64,000 bases of DNA, taken from positions 113,276,001 through 113,340,000 of the forward strand of contig NW_024704742.1 in the NCBI RefSeq assembly GCF_018977255.1. The letters are read 5' to 3'. A program made the position numbers and the translations under genes. Of the stretch, positions 20,774-64,000 are shown in pieces. Each line of letters opens with the position of its first letter. Positions within the stretch are counted from its first letter, which is position 1. The notes under the pieces are model-generated. The model had not been told where the DNA came from, did not search any database, and worked only from the letters and a program-made list of their open reading frames with translations. Source of the stretch: Callorhinchus milii. Its lineage: Eukaryota.

Positions 20774-21050
20774 ACAACAACAAATTACATTTGTAAAGTG
20801 CCTTCCAGGTTGGGGGGGATGTCCCAAGGCGCTGGGCAGTCAGGGATTTGGATTTGAGGTGAAGGGCAGGGACGGTAGGGGTAGGAGGGTGACCGAAGGC
20901 ATGGTCGAAGAGGAGGATCTTGAGACGGGCCTTGAAGGAGGCAAGTGAGGGAGTGAATTGAAGGCACTGTGGGATGAAAGGCTGAAGGCCCGATTGCCGA
21001 TGGTGGGGTGGGCAGGGCGGGAGACATGCAGTAGGCCAGAGCCTGCTCCA
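20774..21050 (-). mobile_element. L2 3'-end fragment
   Basis: It has a (caa)n tail and a G-rich 3' UTR colinear with 1782-2090. Confidence 0.8.
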
Positions 21051-21185
21051 AATGTAGGTGTTGTGAATTCAATAGGATTCACAACACCTACATTTACAAG
21101 CCAATGGAGAATCATCCCTTCCTAGTGTTTTAGAGCCAGCAATTGCAAACATTCCCTTACCACTCCCACCACGCACGCCACATAT

Positions 21186-22377
21186 AATAACAAAAGGTCT
21201 TTATCAGGTCCAAAAATGGCAGTGCCAACATTGATGGAAAGCATGTGATAAAAGATTTCCAATAGAAAACACTAGGAGTAGTGGATTCTCTACTGGTTGA
21301 TTAATGTATAGTTTCTCTTGCTACAATGTATAGGGCTTCAATTCAAAATTATACACTCACTGCAATTGTTTATTCAAATGGTATTACACTAGTACTTTAA
21401 TATAAGGCAGTCTTCAGGGCCTTGTGGAAGGTGGAGTTGGGAAGCTGAGCAGGGCATTGGAAAAACCCTTTGAGATTTCCTCCTGATATGAAAGGGGCTA
21501 TATAAATGTTAATCGTTGCTGTTCTTTCACTAAAGGTGAACATCTCAAAGCGCTTTACAAAGACTGAATGGGAGCCTGAACTGGGAGGGGACAGAGAATG
21601 GGGTTAGTGGGTGATGACCAAAGGTGCTGTCAATAAGGTGGGTCTTTCGAAAGCTTTCAACCAGTAGAGAATCACTACTCCTCATGTTTTCTATTGGAAA
21701 TCTCTTTTCACTTGATTTCCATCATGTTGGCCCTGCTATTTCTGGACCTGATAAAGGCCTTTTGTTATTCCAGCGCACATACGACCTCCAGTGGCAAACC
21801 CAGAGAAGCTCAATTGTAACAAGACAGGACAGGAGTGGAGGGAACCAGATGGAAGAGAGATTCAGAGGATGGGGCAAAGGAAGGGGCTGACAGCTCGCCT
21901 GCTGATGGTGGAGCAGGATGGGCGGGAGCCATGAATTAAATCAAAGTTGGAGTGGAGTCAGAGACTGGGATAGTAGGTCGCAAGAGATCATAGAAGTATG
22001 GTAGGGCAAAACCGAGGCATTTGAAGGTAAGGATGAGGATCTTAGGTGAGCTAGGTGAGGGTGGGGGTGATTGTCTTGCGGAATCTAGTGCAGGAGAGAT
22101 TTGCGGGCTGCAGTGCTCCGATGATCTGGGGCTTGAGGAAAGTGAAGCAGAGCTGAAGTGCTTTGTGACCATCTTCCCCTACTACTCAAATCCAGCATGA
22201 TAATATTGGCAGTAAACCATTGTTCGTTCCTCATCCAGTAAATTCTGGCTGATGCTGACCCAGCAGTGTGTGTACCTTTTGAACACACTCTTGTGTGTCT
22301 ATTAACAATACATACAACCTCCTGTCTTTTCTTGTTACATTTGAGCTTCTCTGGTTTTGCCACTGGAGGTCGTATGT
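21186..22377. repeat. Double inverted repeat: A (21186-21300) pairs with A' (21657-21769), and B' (21777-21835) pairs with B (22319-22377)
   Basis: Manual alignment gives about 12 differences over 115 nt for A/A' and 4 over 59 nt for B/B'. Confidence 0.9.
21520..22170 (-). mobile_element. Older L2 3' fragment interrupted by the A'B' block
   Basis: It is colinear with the L2 3' end on both sides of 21657-21835. ORF 21936-22172 contains the L2 C-terminal-like 'KILILTFKCL'. Confidence 0.6.
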
Positions 22378-23305: not shown

Positions 23306-23627
23306 TAACAATAATAATAATAATAATCCTTTCATTTGATATAGCGCTTTTCACATCTTCTAGATGTCTCAAAGTGCTTTACAGAATATGCTGTAAAGTG
23401 AATTGACTGTAATATTTGTGGGTGAAACACAGCAGCCAATTGCGCACAGCAGTGTCCCACAAACAGTCGTGGATTGAAAATGACCAATTTATTATTGTTT
23501 TTTGGAGGGATTATTATTAGGCGTGTGGAGTAAGGAAATTTGCCGAAGGTTTCGCCCTGCCTGGAATTGAACCCAGGTGTCTCGCTTGCAAAGCGAGTGC
23601 TCTAACCACTGAGTTACAGGACTCCAC
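23306..23627 (-). mobile_element. Full-length young tRNA-Ala-like SINE (TAGAA tail-loop type)
   Basis: It is the reverse complement of the 46567 and 50407 elements over its whole length, with an (ATT)n tail and a possible short TSD (tata). Confidence 0.92.
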
Positions 23628-34129: not shown

Positions 34130-35790
34130 TGCACATCATCACTGGTCCACCCTCGCCTCCACTAAATCGTCCTTCTTTTCCAAGGTAATCTTGGAGGCCA
34201 AAGGCAACTCCAGACTTCTCTTCTCCATGACCTGGCTCCTCGGTCCACTCTTTCATGCCTCACCCATCCTCTCCTCCAACTCCAACTGCAAGGAGATGCT
34301 GGATTTCTTCGAGACCAAAATCAGGGGGATCCGTTCAGCCATTTCCACCCTCCCAACCGCCAACCCCTTCCCATTTCTCCCTCACACTCTGGCCCCTACT
34401 CATCCCTCCCTCCACACCTTCAAACCTATCTCCCCTCCTCTCTTACCACCACTGTAACCCACATGAAGCCCACCACCTGCTCCTTAAACCCCCCAAAAAA
34501 CCTTAACCCCCCTTCTTGCCTCCTAGCTCCACCTCCTCGCCCCTTTACTCTCAGACCTCGTCAACCTCTGCCTGTCAACTGGCACCATTCCCACCCCCTA
34601 AAAACACCTGTCATCACCCTTATCCTAAAAAAATCTTCCCTGCCCCATCCTTGCTCACTAACTACCGTGCATCTCCAACCTCCCTTTCCTTTCCAAGATC
34701 CTTGAAAGAGTTGTTTCCGAGCTTCACTCCTTCCTCTCCTGCCATTCTCTTTACGACCCTTCCAGTCAGGTTTCTGTGCTGCCCACAGCACAGAAACAGC
34801 CCTGGTTAAGGTGACAAATTACATTCTGTCTATCTGTGACCAGGGCTCCCTCTGTCTCCTCGTCCTCTTCGACCTCTCTGCTGCCTTTGACACTGTGGAC
34901 CACTCTATCCTCCTCCACCACATTTTCTCTCACCTGAACCTTCAAGGTTCTGTCTTTGAATGGTTCAGATCCTATCTCTCACACCAGCTCCACTTTGTTT
35001 CCACATATGGCTTCTCCTCTAACCCCTGCACCGTCTCGTGTGGTGTTCCTCATGGCTCGGTCCTCTCCTCTTCAACCTGTACATGCTCCCTCTTGGTAAC
35101 AACATCCGCAGACATGGGGTCAACTTCCGCATGTACGCCGATGACACCCAACTCTATCTCTCTGCCTCCACTCTCAACCCCAAGACCACTGATGTCCTGA
35201 CAAAATGTCTATCAGACATCAAATCTTGGATGAGAGGCAAATTTCTACCGTTGAACATCAGGAAGATCGAGGTTCTCCTGATTGGCCGCGCTGCGCCTCC
35301 GCACCTCAGGCACTGACAGCAGCAGCATCCACGGATGCACACTCGACCTCAGCAGGCCTGTCAGGGACCTAGGAGTCTTGTTCGGCCCTCAACTGTCCTT
35401 TCTCCCCCACTCTGCCTTCCCCCACCTCCGGAACATTGCCCAACTCCGCTACTGCCTCACCCCTCCGGCCGCCAAAACCCTCAAACATGCCTTCATTACA
35501 ACCAGGCTCGACTACCGATACCCTGCTTGTCGGCTTTCCCAACTCTTCCCTCCACAAGCTGCAGATCATCCAGAACTCTGCAGCTCGTAACCTCTCCCTC
35601 ACCAGGCTCTGTGACCCCATCACACCCTCGCCCAACTCCATTGGCTCTCCATCCCTCAGAGGTTCGAGTTCAGAATTCTCATCTTCACCTTCAAGGCCTT
35701 CCATGGCCTTGCCACTCCTACCTCTCCGACCTGTAAACCCCTTATCAACCCGTCCGCTCCACCGCTCAGCAGGCTCCGGCCTGCTCCAGT
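34130..35790 (+). mobile_element. L2-clade LINE ORF2 remnant (RT domain), frameshifted, truncated at both ends
   Basis: Fragments read 'LLVLFDLSAAFDTVDHSILL', 'GVPHGSVL', 'GPLLFNLYMLPLG.IRRHGVNFRMYADDTQLY' (YADD at 35134-35145) and 'HAFITTRLDY'. Confidence 0.95.
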
Positions 35791-50406: not shown

Positions 50407-50731
50407 GTAGAGTCCTGTAGCTCAGTGGTTAGAGCACTCGCTTTGCAAGCGAGAGACCTGAGTTCAATTCCAGGCAGGGTGAAACCTTGGGCAAGTTTCC
50501 TTACTCCACACGCCTAATAATAATCCCTCCAAAAACCCAAAACAATAATAAATTGGTCATTTTCAATCTACGACTGTTTGTGGGACATTGCTGTGCGCAA
50601 TTGGCTGCCGCGTTTGCCCACAAATATACAGTCAATTCACTTTACAGTGTGTTCTGTGAAGCGCTTTGGGACGTCCTCCCGACGTGAAAAGCGCTATATC
50701 AAATGCAAGGATTATTATTATTATTATTATT
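50407..50731 (+). mobile_element. Full-length young tRNA-Ala-like SINE (CTCCC loop)
   Basis: It is near-identical to 46567-46893, with 'agca(g)' repeated at 50403 and 50732 as a probable TSD. Confidence 0.95.
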
Positions 50732-57244: not shown

Positions 57245-57936
57245 GTGGAGTCCTGTAGCTCAGTGGTTAGAGCACTCGCCTCTCAAACGAGAAACCTGGG
57301 TTCGATTCCCGGCAGGGTTTGCATCTGAGCTGGGGTGGGGGTTTTGAGGGTCAAAGGGCGAGAAAGGTCAGGGTGAAACCTTGGGCAACTTTCCTTACTC
57401 TACGCTCCTGATAATAATCCCTCAAAGAAAAAAATTTGGGGACTCAATTAACGACTGTTTGTGGGACACTGCTATAATAATAATAACAATAATCCTTGCA
57501 TTTGATATAGCACTTTTCACGTCGGGAGGCCATCCCAAAGCGCTTCACAGAACACACTGTAAAGTGAATTGACTGTATATTTGTGGGCGAACGCAGCAGC
57601 CAATTGCGCACAGCAATGTCCCACAAACAGTCGTAGATTGAAAATGACCAACTTATTATTGTTTGGGTTTTGGAGGGATTATTATTAGGCTCTGTGTGGA
57701 GTAAGGAAACTTGCCCAAGGTTTCGCCCTGTCTGGAATTGAACTCAGGTCTCTCGCTTGCAAAGCAAGTGCTCTAACCACTGAGCTACAGGACTCCATGA
57801 TGCTATGCGCAATTGGCTGCCGAATTTCACCCACAAAATATACAGTCAATTCACTTTACAGTATATTTTGTGAAGCACTTTGAGACGTCTAGAAGATTTG
57901 AAAAGCGCTGTATCAAATGCAAGGATTATTATTATT
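57245..57936 (+). mobile_element. Host tRNA-derived SINE (57245-57475 plus 57807-57936; TAGAA loop) carrying two insertions
   Basis: The head is at 57245, the core is split at gggacac-tgctat-gcgcaattgg, and the tail is at 57875-57936. Confidence 0.9.
57476..57800 (-). mobile_element. Full-length young SINE (CTCCC loop) nested antisense in the host SINE
   Basis: The TSD TGCTAT lies at 57470-57475 and 57801-57806. Confidence 0.92.
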
Positions 57937-59118
57937 TTAACAGGCAAGAATTACTTTAAAATATAAAGACAGCAACAAACAGCAACAATGTTTATTTATA
58001 TAGTACCATTCCCGTACAGGGTAATGTCTCAGACCGTTTACGCTCATCAAACAACAAGGTAAGCAGCAGGTATCAGCTTAGCAATATCGATTGCCAATTT
58101 AATTGGATATACTGTAGATTTATTCAATGGAGGTAGATTTAAATAATTTAGCTAAGACCAGACAAGCACAAGTAATAATAATAGTACTCCTTGCATTTAA
58201 TATAATGCCTTAGCATGTCTCAAAGGTTTCACAGAATATACTGTAAAGTGAATTGACTGTATATTTTGTGGGCAAAACAAAAATTTCAAGTGCAAAGTAA
58301 AAGGTTTGAGAATTACTTTACGGAAGCATTCAAACAGATTCAAAGAATCCAAGCTCTTGGAGTTTGTGCCATATTCTACCAAATACCCAGGAATGGAGAA
58401 AGAAAGAAAACAACTCATTATGAAATGTAGAAAAACTTCTATTTATATGCACTTTGAATACTCAAGGCCTGAAATCCCAGGCAGTCTTAGCCCTTAAGAA
58501 AATAGCCAGCTTCGAAATTAAGGCTGAATTCATTCAAGAATTTAAAAAAATGCAATCTTCAATTTTTAAACAGGCTAATCTGACAGGCTAAAATTTGGTG
58601 GAAATTCTTTTAAACACAGATTAGGAAACAACATTATGGGATATAGTACATAGGTAGTTTAGGAGAAAAAAAATAATAAATTGGTCATTTTCAATCCACG
58701 ACTGTTTGTAGGACACTGCTGTGCACAATTGGCTGTCACTTTTCGCCCACAAATATACGGTCAATTCACTTTACAGCATATTCTGTGAAGCGCTTTGAGC
58801 TGTCTAGAAGATGCGAAAAGCACTTTATCAAATGCAAGGATTATTATTATTATTATATGTGCATTCGACCGCCAGGAAGGTGGAAGGCAAACTAGATGGA
58901 CCTTGGTCTTTATTCGTCTAGTATTTCTTATGTTCTTATGTTACGTTAATTTCATGCCATCCGTGTTCAAATAAGAATCAAAATAAAACTTTTGATGCAG
59001 GTTGTCTCAAGTTTTGTCAGATTGTAAAATAACAACAACAACCAAATGCTCAAGCTTTTGTTCCCCGAGGTTTCAATAGATGTTACATTCCCAAGCAGCA
59101 AATGCTGGTTTTGTAATC

Positions 59119-59910
59119 AAAACACAAAATACTGCAGATGCTGGAAATCTGAAAGAAAAGCAGAAGTCGCTGGGAACACTCAGCAGGTCAAGCAGAATCT
59201 ACGGAGAAAGAAAAGTGAGTCAACGTTTTGGGTCCACGAGCCTTCGTCAGAACTGGGCCATGTTGAGAGGGAAAGGCTTTTAAGGACTAACAGAGAGGGG
59301 GGAGACAGGGCAAGGAAGACAAAGGAGAAAATGGGGTAAAGGACAGGGGATGATGGGTTAAAGAGGTGTTAATAATGCAAAATAAAGGGGGCAGGGGAAA
59401 TTGCAACAAAACAGGCAGACCAGAGAGAGAAAAGGTGTGTCTGGGACCCAGATGATGTGGTAATGATCACAAAAGAGGGGGAGGGGGAAGTTGAGCTGTT
59501 ATGGTCTGAAATTATTGAAATCAACATTGAGGCCAGAGGGCTGTAAGGTCCCTAGAAGATATATGAGATGCTGTTCCTCGAGCTTGCGCTGTGGTTCATT
59601 CGAACAGTGTAGGAGACCATGGATGGATAGGTCAGAGTGAAGGTGGGAGGGAGAATTGAAGTGGCAAGAAATCAGAAGCTCAGGCTTGTGCTTGCGGACA
59701 GAATGGAGGGATTGGGCAAATCGGTCAACCAATCTGCATTTGGTCTCCCCAATGTACAGGAGACCACATCGTGAGAAGCGAATGCAATATACTACGTTGA
59801 TGGTAGTACACGTAAATTGCTGTCTCACTTGGAGTGACTCACTTTTCTTTCTCCATAGATGTTGCCTGACCTGCTGAATATTCCTAGCGAATTCTGTTTT
59901 TGTTGCTGGT
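59119..59910 (-). mobile_element. Penelope-like retroelement, 5'-truncated: GIY-YIG endonuclease end, pseudo-LTR, and an inverted partial pseudo-LTR
   Basis: ORF 59499-59828 reads 'FTCTTINVVYCIRFSRCGLLYIGETKCRLVDRF..HFNS..RKLEEQHLIYLLGTLQPSGLN', which is a Penelope GIY-YIG domain. Positions 59835-59910 are an inverted copy of ~59146-59222. Confidence 0.92.
59218..59254 (-). ncRNA. Degenerate minimal (type I) hammerhead ribozyme motif in the Penelope pseudo-LTR
   Basis: The minus strand reads agtt-CTGACGA-a-ggctc-gtg-gaccc-AAAAC-GTT-gact. This gives a CUGANGA box, stem II with one mismatch, GAAA decayed to AAAA, a palindromic ACGT stem III, an NUH triplet and stem I agtt/gact. Confidence 0.7.
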
Positions 59911-62499
59911 TTTATGTTTCTTTCACCACTATTAATCTTTTTCCTTTTGAACTAGTTTGCAAATTCCCCTTTTCACATCATTATCTGATGTTAAAAAGAG
60001 AGGTACTCTCCCTTCACCTTTTAACTTCACAAAAGAAAAAAAATGAGCAAACCCAGAGATTTAAATTTAAACTCCAAAGCTGACTGTATTCTTACAGGGC
60101 TGACTCCAAATAGTTTGGAAGTTTATTAACTTGTGTTTGTGCACACTGTTCTGATTAGATTTCCTTGCTTTTGACTTGATTTCTCCAAAGATATTCAATC
60201 AAAGACAATAAATTATTGAGGATATATCCTTTGGGAGACCACAAGGATGAAGTAAATCATGCTCTCAGGAAAAATACCTTTCTGGAGCAAAGGGAATTTA
60301 TTTGTTACACTAATCAGTCACAGTTTGGGTTATAGTGTGAGATATGACAGAAGTAAGTAATCAAAGTAAAGGCAAAATACTAAAAGTAAAATCATTAATA
60401 GGAAAAGCATTTTGACTAGCTTAGCAATAGTAATACTCCTTGCCCTTATTGTAGTGTTTTGGTTTATTTAAGTTGTTAGTTTCTCATGTCAAAGTATTTG
60501 GTGCAGATTGGCCCCAAATCACATACTAATAAAATAATAATCCTTACATTGGGAGGATGTCTCAGAGTGCTTCACAGGATTTACATGAAAGTGTAGTGAC
60601 TGTATATTTGGTAAGATAATGCAACAGCCAATTTGCACACAGCAGTGTCCCACAAACAGCCATGACCAAAAAAGTAAATATGTAGATGAACAAAACCAAT
60701 TGCAGAAATTCTTAAAAAGTAGAAAAAACAGTTTTGAATAGGTTTGTGTTATTTAATTATATAATTTCAGCTTTAAATTATTATATTGTAGGATTTATTT
60801 TATAATGTAAGACACTGTACTTTGATATAGCGCCTATAGCAATGAAATGTCTCAAAAGAGGGGATTTCTGTAAAATGTTCACAGGTGATTTCTGTAAAAT
60901 GTTGTAACTGTATTTGTCGGCAAACATAGCTACTAATTTGACCACCACAAAGTCCCGTAAACATTCATGAAGTGATCAATATTATCTGGGGGATTGCTGG
61001 CCAGGACACCAAGAGAACCTCACTTATGTTTTCGAATAGCATAATAAGATCTTCAAATCACACCCAAACAGTGAGATGGATCTTAGTTTATTGTTTAAAC
61101 ATCCTGTTTATGGTGCTTCTAATAGAATGGTCCAAGTCTCTCAGGAATAATGATGTTAAACAATTGACAAGTGGTATTAATTCAATTTATTGCATGGTAG
61201 GTTAGTTGGCTTTATTGCAATCTCATGTGTGTCCAATTAGAAGAAACAGGCCTCAATTGTGACCTTGCACCAATACAACAACAACAACAACTTGGATTTA
61301 TATAGCGCCCTCCACGCCGGACAGCGTCTCAGAGCGCTTCACAGCAACGGATCCCAATGACACTTAGACAGAACTATGGACTCAATATTAGCAATAACCC
61401 TGCAGCCTTGAGTCACTGATGTCTTCCTGAAAGGACCATCATATCTGTGAAGGTTTCCCCATCTTCTCTTATACAGCATCAATGTGAAATTGCAAACATT
61501 TCGATGCAAGCAAATGCAAATTTATCAACCATTGCTTGTATTTCCAATAAAAAGTTGTATTATTTGCAATTATATCTCCCCTCCTTTTAATTCTGTAAAG
61601 GAACTGCTCACTTCCAAACTACAATTCAACATTGATGACTCCTTTGATTACACTGACAAAAAAGTGGACTGCCAACCAGACAATCTCTTATTGTGAGATG
61701 GAGCATCCTTGCATCTCGTCATTCTCCAGATGGTGTACATAATCAAGAATTTAAAGTAAATTGACTATCACAGTGACAGCCAGGCTTTGATTGACAGCCA
61801 ATCCTGAGACTTAAACCTGCAACCATCTGTAGCTGTCCCTATCCTATGTTACTTAACCTAATGTATTGTTTATCTCATTTCATTTGTTCACGAAAAATTA
61901 GTATGTTCCCTATCACTTGCAGCCTGGAATTCAGTCACAGAGAAAGCTGGATCCTTGAAATCTAACTGAAATCCTGTTGAGAAATGCTAGTCTTCTGAGA
62001 CATTTATGGGTGTATCTCATTAGCTCGATTATGTGCAATTGTCTTGTTGATGTACATTGTGTTCCTATTGCTAATGAACTTTGAATATTCAGTCAAGAAA
62101 CCAAATGAGATCTAATAACATGCCTAATTAAACTATAGCATACAATATTTACACTGCAGTTCACTCAGTGCAATGATTCACTTGCTCCATTCGCAATGGT
62201 TTAAAACCTCAGCAATTACCTCTGGCTAGATGTTAGTATCTGAGAATGCAATGCCTGCTGCACCATAATGAACTCTAATTTGCAAGGGTTACAAAAGGAT
62301 TTGCAAGCAGCAAAGGCTTCAGGGCCCAATTGTACATAGAATCTACATCACTGAAAGAGGATAACCGGCCCAACTAGTCTGTGCTGGTGTTTATACTACA
62401 CATAAGCCTCCTAATCCATTCTCCATAGCCTCACCCATATCCTCTATTCCATATCTCTCATGTATTGACTGGAACTCCGCTTTGATGCTAATTTCAGTT

Positions 62500-63310: not shown

Positions 63311-64000
63311 GTGGAGTCCTGTAGCTCAGTGGTTAGAGCAATCGCCTTGCAAGCTAGAGTACCTGGGTTCGATTCCCAGCAGGGCGAAATGTTGGCCAAG
63401 TTTCCTTACTCCACATGCTTCTGTTTACCTAGCAGTAAGTAGGAACCCGGTTGTTAGTCAATTGTAGATCATTTTTCCAGAGTTAGTCATCCCTTCAAAA
63501 AATAATAATAAATAAATAACCCACGACTGTTTGTGGGACACTGCTATGCACAATTGGCTATATGCTCTCTCTCAGAGATGTCATCGGCAGACATGGGGTA
63601 AACTTCCACATGCATGTGGATGACACCCAAATCTACTTCTCATCCTCCAGCTGCGACTCCCAGTTCACTGATGTCCTGTCAGCTTGTTTGACGAACATCA
63701 AGGCCTGGATGAGCTTAAATTTCCTGCAGTTGAGTGTCGGCAAATTGGAAGCCATACTCTTTGGCTCCCATCAACATCTTGTCTCTTGTCTCCTGTGGGT
63801 CTGAACTCCTCAACTTCCCTGGGCTCTGCCTAAGACTCACCAAAGTCTGAGGCAGCTTAGGCTTCAGCTCCCTCTCTTCCTGGCTCAGCGTCAGACTCCG
63901 GCACTGTCAAGCGCTCCAGGACGCTTCGCTACATAAAGGACACTATATAAATGCAAGTTGTTGTTGCTGTATTTTGCCCACAAAATATGCAGTCAATTTG
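63311..64000 (+). mobile_element. Long-form tRNA-derived SINE (63311-63560, resuming at ~63966), split by an L2 fragment
   Basis: The tRNA head has a perfect T arm (ctggg-ttcgatt-cccag) and is followed by an extra ~70-bp segment. The core runs to 'aattggct' and resumes as 'tttgcccacaaaatatgcagtcaatt'. Confidence 0.85.
63562..63966 (+). mobile_element. Internally deleted L2 fragment (RT motif region joined to the tail)
   Basis: The ORF reads 'VIGRHGVNFHMHVDDTQIY..IKAWMSLNFLQL', and the tail is 'aagcgctccaggacg..tatataaatgcaag(ttg)n'. Confidence 0.85.

Follow-up and report, generated by a model that had tools for sequence, protein, structure and literature searches.

A decayed Penelope-like insertion in the Callorhinchus milii genome, with a minimal hammerhead and an inverted arm that starts near its predicted cut

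The window analysed here is a 64-kb stretch of the genome of Callorhinchus milii. It contains a Penelope/Poseidon-type insertion of 786 bp (59118–59903), which is 5′-truncated and ends in the GIY-YIG region (Table 1). The limits of the insertion are placed at about 59118 and 59903 because the arm limits and the copies of the target-site duplication flank there. In a control for the duplication, 3 of 5000 random window pairs had a 10-mer in common. An arm end at 59910, given in the first-pass annotation, is rejected; the arm stops at about 59903, and 59904–59913 is the right copy of the target-site duplication. The insertion is an old, broken and dead copy of an element common in cartilaginous fish. 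No second copy of the family was found in the 64-kb window, and the exact hammerhead core pattern had 0 matches. From its domain order, the element presumably belongs to the Penelope/Poseidon clade rather than to Neptune or Nematis. Element, ribozyme and inversion each belong to a known kind, and the coordinates, stems and homologues bear out the first-pass description of a Penelope-like element with a hammerhead in its pseudo-LTR (pLTR) and an inverted partial LTR.

Table 1. Coordinates of the parts of the insertion and of other features of the window
Feature	Position	Strand	Basis or remark
Target-site duplication, left copy	59103..59112	+	exact 10-mer; with mismatches on to ~59117, 12/15
One-sided 3′ tail, ~37 nt	59118..59155	-	long arm only; missing from inverted arm
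pLTR segment 3′ of predicted cut, duplicated in inverted arm	59156..59221	-	self-comparison
Minimal type I hammerhead, decayed	59218..59254	-	core pattern and stem pairing; predicted cut between 59222 and 59221
Pyrimidine-rich 3′ UTR, GIY-YIG stop to hammerhead	59255..59498	-	covered by family contigs
GIY-YIG endonuclease coding end, 5′-truncated	59499..59834	-	QVRQ...FRP then stop; frame open
Junction microhomology	59835..59839	.	fits inverted arm and Gln-Ser codons before FQVR in homologues
Inverted, tail-less pLTR arm	59835..59903	+	equivalent to 59222-59154
Target-site duplication, right copy	59904..59913	+	10/10 identical to 59103-59112
tRNA-like stretches, n = 5	57248-57322, 57724-57793, 23553-23622, 50412-50481, 63315-63387		tRNA search
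Linked inverted repeats	21186-21300/21657-21769 (90%); 21777-21835/22319-22377 (93%)		within 21186-22377
46-nt palindrome	21050-21095		lies before the linked inverted repeats
870-nt dispersed repeat pair	2100-2970 and 34652-35514	opposite strands	74% identical

The coding end of the element is a minus-strand frame (59831–59502) that is open over 110 codons and is closed by a stop; a stingray RT/GIY-YIG protein matches it from end to end with 65% identity (E = 3.3e-39). The closest homologues, obtained in a protein search in which 10 of 75 candidates passed, are three proteins from stingray and devil-ray (P0038–P0040), which cover 100% of the query at 65, 62 and 61% identity. Judged by these homologues, the host is a cartilaginous fish. 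A further 37 shorter proteins without names, out of 38 candidates, are 54–66% identical to the GIY-YIG frame. The Pfam GIY-YIG match is weak for the query (E = 0.1), and the homologues likewise fall below the cut-off. The homologues extend upstream with a YIDD/YVDN motif, which we take to be the RT motif; Pfam RT has no match in them. No sequence upstream of the nuclease, including the RT part, was found in the 59118–59903 copy. Two residues of the homologues are missing from this copy, the Cys at position 19, which is nearly invariant, and the His of EHL; both are presumably part of a CCHH motif. The stingray protein P0040 is annotated as ‘divergent protein kinase domain 1C isoform X2’ and aligns across the whole GIY-YIG region; it looks like a Penelope ORF, and the kinase name is probably a gene-model artefact.

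The hammerhead is read on the minus strand. Stem I consists of a 5′ strand, 59254–59251, and a 3′ strand, 59221–59218; the box CUGACGA at 59250–59244 conforms to CUGANGA and is followed by an extra A (59243), and stem II is formed by 59242–59238 and 59234–59230. At 59229–59226, AAAA replaces GAAA (G12A at 59229). The bases C-G-U-U occupy 59225–59222, with the NUH triplet GUU at 59224–59222. GUU is a valid NUH triplet, and G12A abolishes hammerhead cleavage. All four pairs of stem I can form, one of them G–U, as can four of the five of stem II, where 59240 and 59232 make a C–C mismatch. This mismatch stems from a change at 59240, and the family letter (39830 of 41621 depth in run X1, see below) restores the 5-bp stem. 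The first-pass annotation had placed a minus-strand hammerhead at 59254–59218 and regarded the copy as probably inactive; both statements hold.

When the whole window was shuffled 40 times, a relaxed hammerhead motif had one match in 7 of the shuffles, and the hammerhead is judged to be real, on sequence grounds, by its position 3′ of GIY-YIG and by the perfect stem II of the family rather than by the motif alone. The Rfam hammerhead models match neither 59218–59254 nor an intact minimal hammerhead used as a control (locus L011, see below); since the intact control is also without a match, this silence is no evidence. In folding predictions of the monomer, the hammerhead stems are not formed and the result is no better than for shuffles (z +0.6 to +1.7). 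According to the literature, minimal hammerheads cleave weakly and do so as dimers (PMC4209133; review PMC6765202, citing Lunse et al.). The window element shares several traits with the minimal hammerheads of metazoan Penelope-like elements (Cervera and De la Pena 2014, PMC4209133), namely a 4-bp stem I, an extra base 5′ of stem II, a G10.1–C11.1 pair, a loopless stem III with palindromic 15.2–16.2, location in the pLTR and the occurrence of copies that are mostly solo and truncated. It differs from them in G12A and the C–C mismatch of stem II, in a family stem II of 5 bp and in being a predicted ribozyme.

Homologous loci were also sought in other contigs. Scans with a 22-nt pattern gave four metagenome, six genome and no viral contig loci; these ten loci are rejected as family members, the match being confined to the 22-nt pattern and taken as chance. 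A family-specific hammerhead pattern matched neither genome contigs nor viral contigs (0 in each). A generic hammerhead pattern had 16 viral loci, none of which encodes a Penelope protein. A protein-based search gave one locus in genome contigs, as a single copy in that genome, and none in viral contigs. Locus L011 (43–1269), in a bacterial MAG labelled Endozoicomonas, contains a Penelope RT/GIY-YIG fragment and an intact minimal hammerhead (1242–1269); most likely, it is host-animal DNA in a bacterial bin. This Penelope copy is unrelated to the window element but has the same layout, with the hammerhead core intact.

The family was studied in contigs aligned to 59060–59860 at 80% likeness, in 4 of 24 contig runs covering three organisms. 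Runs X1, X2, X7 and X12 contributed 10169, 10738, 19746 and 14864 contigs, respectively; X1 and X2 come from one species, the host, and one study. The consensus was read from 40 of 565 rows, in which the majority letters at 59229 and 59222 are not included. One family contig from organism C reads CCCGAAAC at the GAAA site, and another family locus reads AAAAC, as does the 59118–59903 copy. The CCCGAAAC contig and the second AAAAC locus fit recurrent CpG decay of G12, and the GAAA-to-AAAA step suggested in the first-pass annotation agrees with them. The companion suggestion of GUC-to-GUU decay is not sustained; T is found at the H17 position in two other loci, and a GUU step is not needed.

Aligned without gaps from 59835, the equivalent of U17, the inverted arm is identical to the pLTR at 58 of 67 positions (59835–59901), with seven transitions and two transversions; 59902 equals the family letter at 59155. 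Only 4 of the 20 nt before 59835 are identical, so the arm holds none of the hammerhead core. The bases next to the junction also suit the coding side. The three closest homologues read Q-S-F-Q-V-R and the window reads E-S-L-Q-V-R, in frame through the junction; codons E-S-L-Q differ from Q-S-F-Q by 1, 0, 1 and 0 base changes, and the tblastn alignment of the coding side reaches 59840. Because 59835–59839 suit the arm as well as the coding strand, a microhomology read from protein homologues and not from a DNA consensus, the arm start is known only as −1 to +4 of the predicted cut. The start at 59835/59836 and the missing core, both proposed earlier, stand; the accompanying ‘within 1 nt’ of the cut corresponds to the earliest possible start in this range. 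At 59211 and 59846, both arms have T, whereas C is the family letter (85042 of 88893 depth, X1), and this common T suggests a single source template or later conversion between the arms.

The 4–5 complementary bases at the junction would let cDNA ends anneal, and microhomology joining would be enough to explain the arm start. The microhomology is also compatible with a run-off cDNA ending at the cut, but it takes away the precision of the junction. According to the latter explanation, the short arm was copied from hammerhead-cut RNA, its cDNA ended at the 5′-OH and four of its bases paired to the long cDNA. No extra change is needed for this, as the arm would run from 59836 with a 4-nt overlap and T59835 would come from the Ser codon; by our rough estimate, scattered ends would touch the cut in 3–8% of cases. 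However, this junction was singled out post hoc, and its family has at least 10169 contigs in one run. The hammerhead of the anole element PAc does cleave with the element protein present, but the dominant in vitro template of PAc is unprocessed RNA (both from PMC11167929).

The same microhomology would also serve a fold-back, in which the 3′ end of the long cDNA pairs with its own post-cut bases and primes the inverted arm, the tail being lost on resolution. A small palindrome (59832–59840) crosses the junction, and junction palindromes in rotifer elements led to a proposal of self-priming (PMC3846280). The arm, however, ends at the second 3′ end of the family (59154–59156) with the tail uncopied, which two priming events explain directly, and fold-back seems quite improbable. 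Stalling of the reverse transcriptase at the folded ribozyme, where it would meet the stem I 3′ strand (59218–59221) first, would involve no cleavage. The junction zone from −1 to +4 overlaps this strand; against this, stem I has just 4 bp, the monomer prediction lacks the hammerhead stems and no peak is present there among the loose-end rows listed. Stalling is very improbable.

The ends of family copies bear on these explanations. The tables of ends were sorted by support; for loose ends they comprise the best 24 of 2827 rows, for joints the best 15 of 382 and for table 5c the best 12 of 194. Loose ends combine solo copies and inverted arms. In all four runs, 3′ ends of the family pile up at 59114–59125 and at 59156. 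These two 3′ ends lie about 37 nt apart and match the tail start and the short-arm end. At the other side, the strongest 5′ boundary among the best 24 of 2827 loose-end rows is 59253–59255, made up of 59253 (52, 46, 136 and 88 contigs in X1, X2, X7 and X12), 59254 (158 contigs, X7) and 59255 (89 contigs, X12). The flanks at these ends are long, AT-rich and heterogeneous; the ends themselves lie ~32 nt upstream of the cut, at the 5′ margin of stem I. No 5′ boundary at 59221/59222 was found among the best 24 of 2827 loose-end rows in the four runs. Ends hidden at the cut could amount to at most 37, 46, 136 and 88 contigs per position, presuming that, in each run, no row of the ‘behind’ type has more support than the two available. 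The ‘behind’ row at 59154 (37 and 53 contigs) is itself rejected as an alignment artefact, with a median of 19–22 letters and an element-like consensus.

Five pLTR inversion joints were found among the best 15 of 382 joints together with the best 12 of 194 rows of table 5c. In these, the hammerhead-side arm starts at 59254, 59253, 59245, 59236 and about 59232, and none of the five starts at the cut. The reading direction of three ‘opposite strand’ joints is presumed, and the count refers to joints within the pLTR, leaving out 59598–59795 and the ‘skip’ joints except those ending at 59835. The first-pass annotation had named, as a test, a peak of inverted-arm starts at the NUH triplet; among the listed rows the result is negative and the peak is at 59253–59255. 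In three of the listed inversion joints and one listed 5c row, the partner arm is apparently the tail alone (~30–36 nt; 59148–59154).

Copying of the short arm from cut RNA finds some favour in the summed depth, which between 59211 and 59240 drops to 0.47, and so about halves, in both host-species runs. Organisms B and C lack this step (0.97 and 1.17), and the cut has neither a loose-end peak nor a joint among the rows listed in any of the four runs. From 59240 to 59258, the depth falls to 0.24–0.34 in all four runs. Both steps are weak evidence, as depth is no copy number and varies with the divergence of the reference copy. A run-off from hammerhead-cut RNA is, on the whole, unlikely. The idea that a 5′ end produced by the ribozyme is preserved in the junction is not supported, since microhomology blurs the junction and the family boundaries lie elsewhere. 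A single junction is anecdotal and too little for a claim of cleavage, and the listed family ends favour another boundary.

Double priming followed by microhomology joining, with a coincidental position near the cut, is favoured over run-off, fold-back and stalling and is, on balance, the probable origin of the junction. The GIY-YIG nuclease would cut AT-rich DNA with a stagger of ~10–15 nt, and both target DNA 3′ ends would prime reverse transcription on the element RNA at the two internal start sites of the family. As these sites are ~37 nt apart, the tail would be present on one arm only. The long cDNA, of ~717 nt, would pass the hammerhead, still uncut, and reach the GIY-YIG region, and the short cDNA would be kept for ~65–69 nt. 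The cDNA ends would anneal by 4–5 complementary bases, and fill-in would produce a head-to-head inversion between the target duplications. We infer that the start of the short arm was set by ordinary truncation and microhomology, and its closeness to the cut would be expected by coincidence among thousands of copies. The hammerhead would have decayed after insertion, and the copy would have died. The long and short arms could also derive from separate RNA molecules, one cut and one uncut.

Double priming is consistent with published work on related elements. Inverted, 5′-truncated partners and one-sided tails of 30–40 bp are typical of Penelope-like elements (PMC8557442, PMC3846280, PMC2377424). 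The insertion has the GIY-YIG part, the inverted pLTR arrangement with a one-sided ~37-nt tail and the target-site duplication of EN+ Penelope-like elements (Craig et al. 2021, PMC8557442; Arkhipova et al. 2013, PMC3846280), which are alike in the C-terminal GIY-YIG, 5′ truncation, an inverted 5′-truncated copy at the 5′ end, a 30–40 bp tail at one end, target duplication and junction microhomology or palindromes. Unlike in those elements, the arm of the window copy abuts a truncated GIY-YIG and starts at the predicted cut, and the copy is without RT and without an upstream direct pLTR. In PAc, the Poseidon of Anolis carolinensis (Frangieh et al. 2024, PMC11167929), two reverse-transcription start sites likewise define the tail, the hammerhead lies ~70–120 nt upstream of the start sites and the targets are AT-rich. 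Both target strands are cut and extended in vitro. PAc with a dead hammerhead inserts equally well, so hammerhead cleavage is dispensable in vitro, and in the accessible part of that work RNA-seq gave no reads starting or ending at the cut and no evidence for cut RNA as a template (PMC11167929).

The role of the hammerhead in Penelope-like elements has been called unclear (PMC8557442). If insertion ends peaked at the cut across a genome, this would be in vivo evidence of such a role, and shark and ray genomes have enough copies for a cheap test. It is conceivable, though doubtful, that a minority of insertions was copied from hammerhead-cut RNA, so that, next to the main class at the 5′ edge of stem I, another class of 5′ ends would start sharply with the base that follows NUH and would include the junction at 59835. 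Were this true, the two boundaries would show from genomic sequence that, in vivo, the hammerhead is folded and cleaves while Penelope retrotransposes and that it affects how the inserted copies end. PMC11167929, in its accessible part, contains no analysis of where inverted arms start, and no plot of such starts against the cut was found in the literature searched, including the available parts of preprint 10.64898/2026.07.22.740005 and of PMC3681739.

The more reproducible signal is a 5′ boundary that recurs at the ribozyme's 5′ edge in three organisms; no description of it was found in the literature searched. It may reflect a transcription start, a splice acceptor, fold-back or a short non-autonomous master. 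Family copies starting at the 5′ edge of stem I comprise units of ~99 nt and 136 nt in all four runs and three organisms. At 59255–59253, CAG follows a pyrimidine tract and is a splice acceptor candidate for this boundary. In D. virilis, an intron has been mapped to finish at the 5′ end of helix I (PMC4209133).

Apart from the Penelope copy, the window contains other repeats (Table 1). Several of the tRNA-like stretches head an abundant dispersed repeat, often as inverted pairs, and are probably heads of tRNA-derived SINEs. The linked inverted repeats have a layout that we take to resemble the split terminal repeats of DIRS-type elements.
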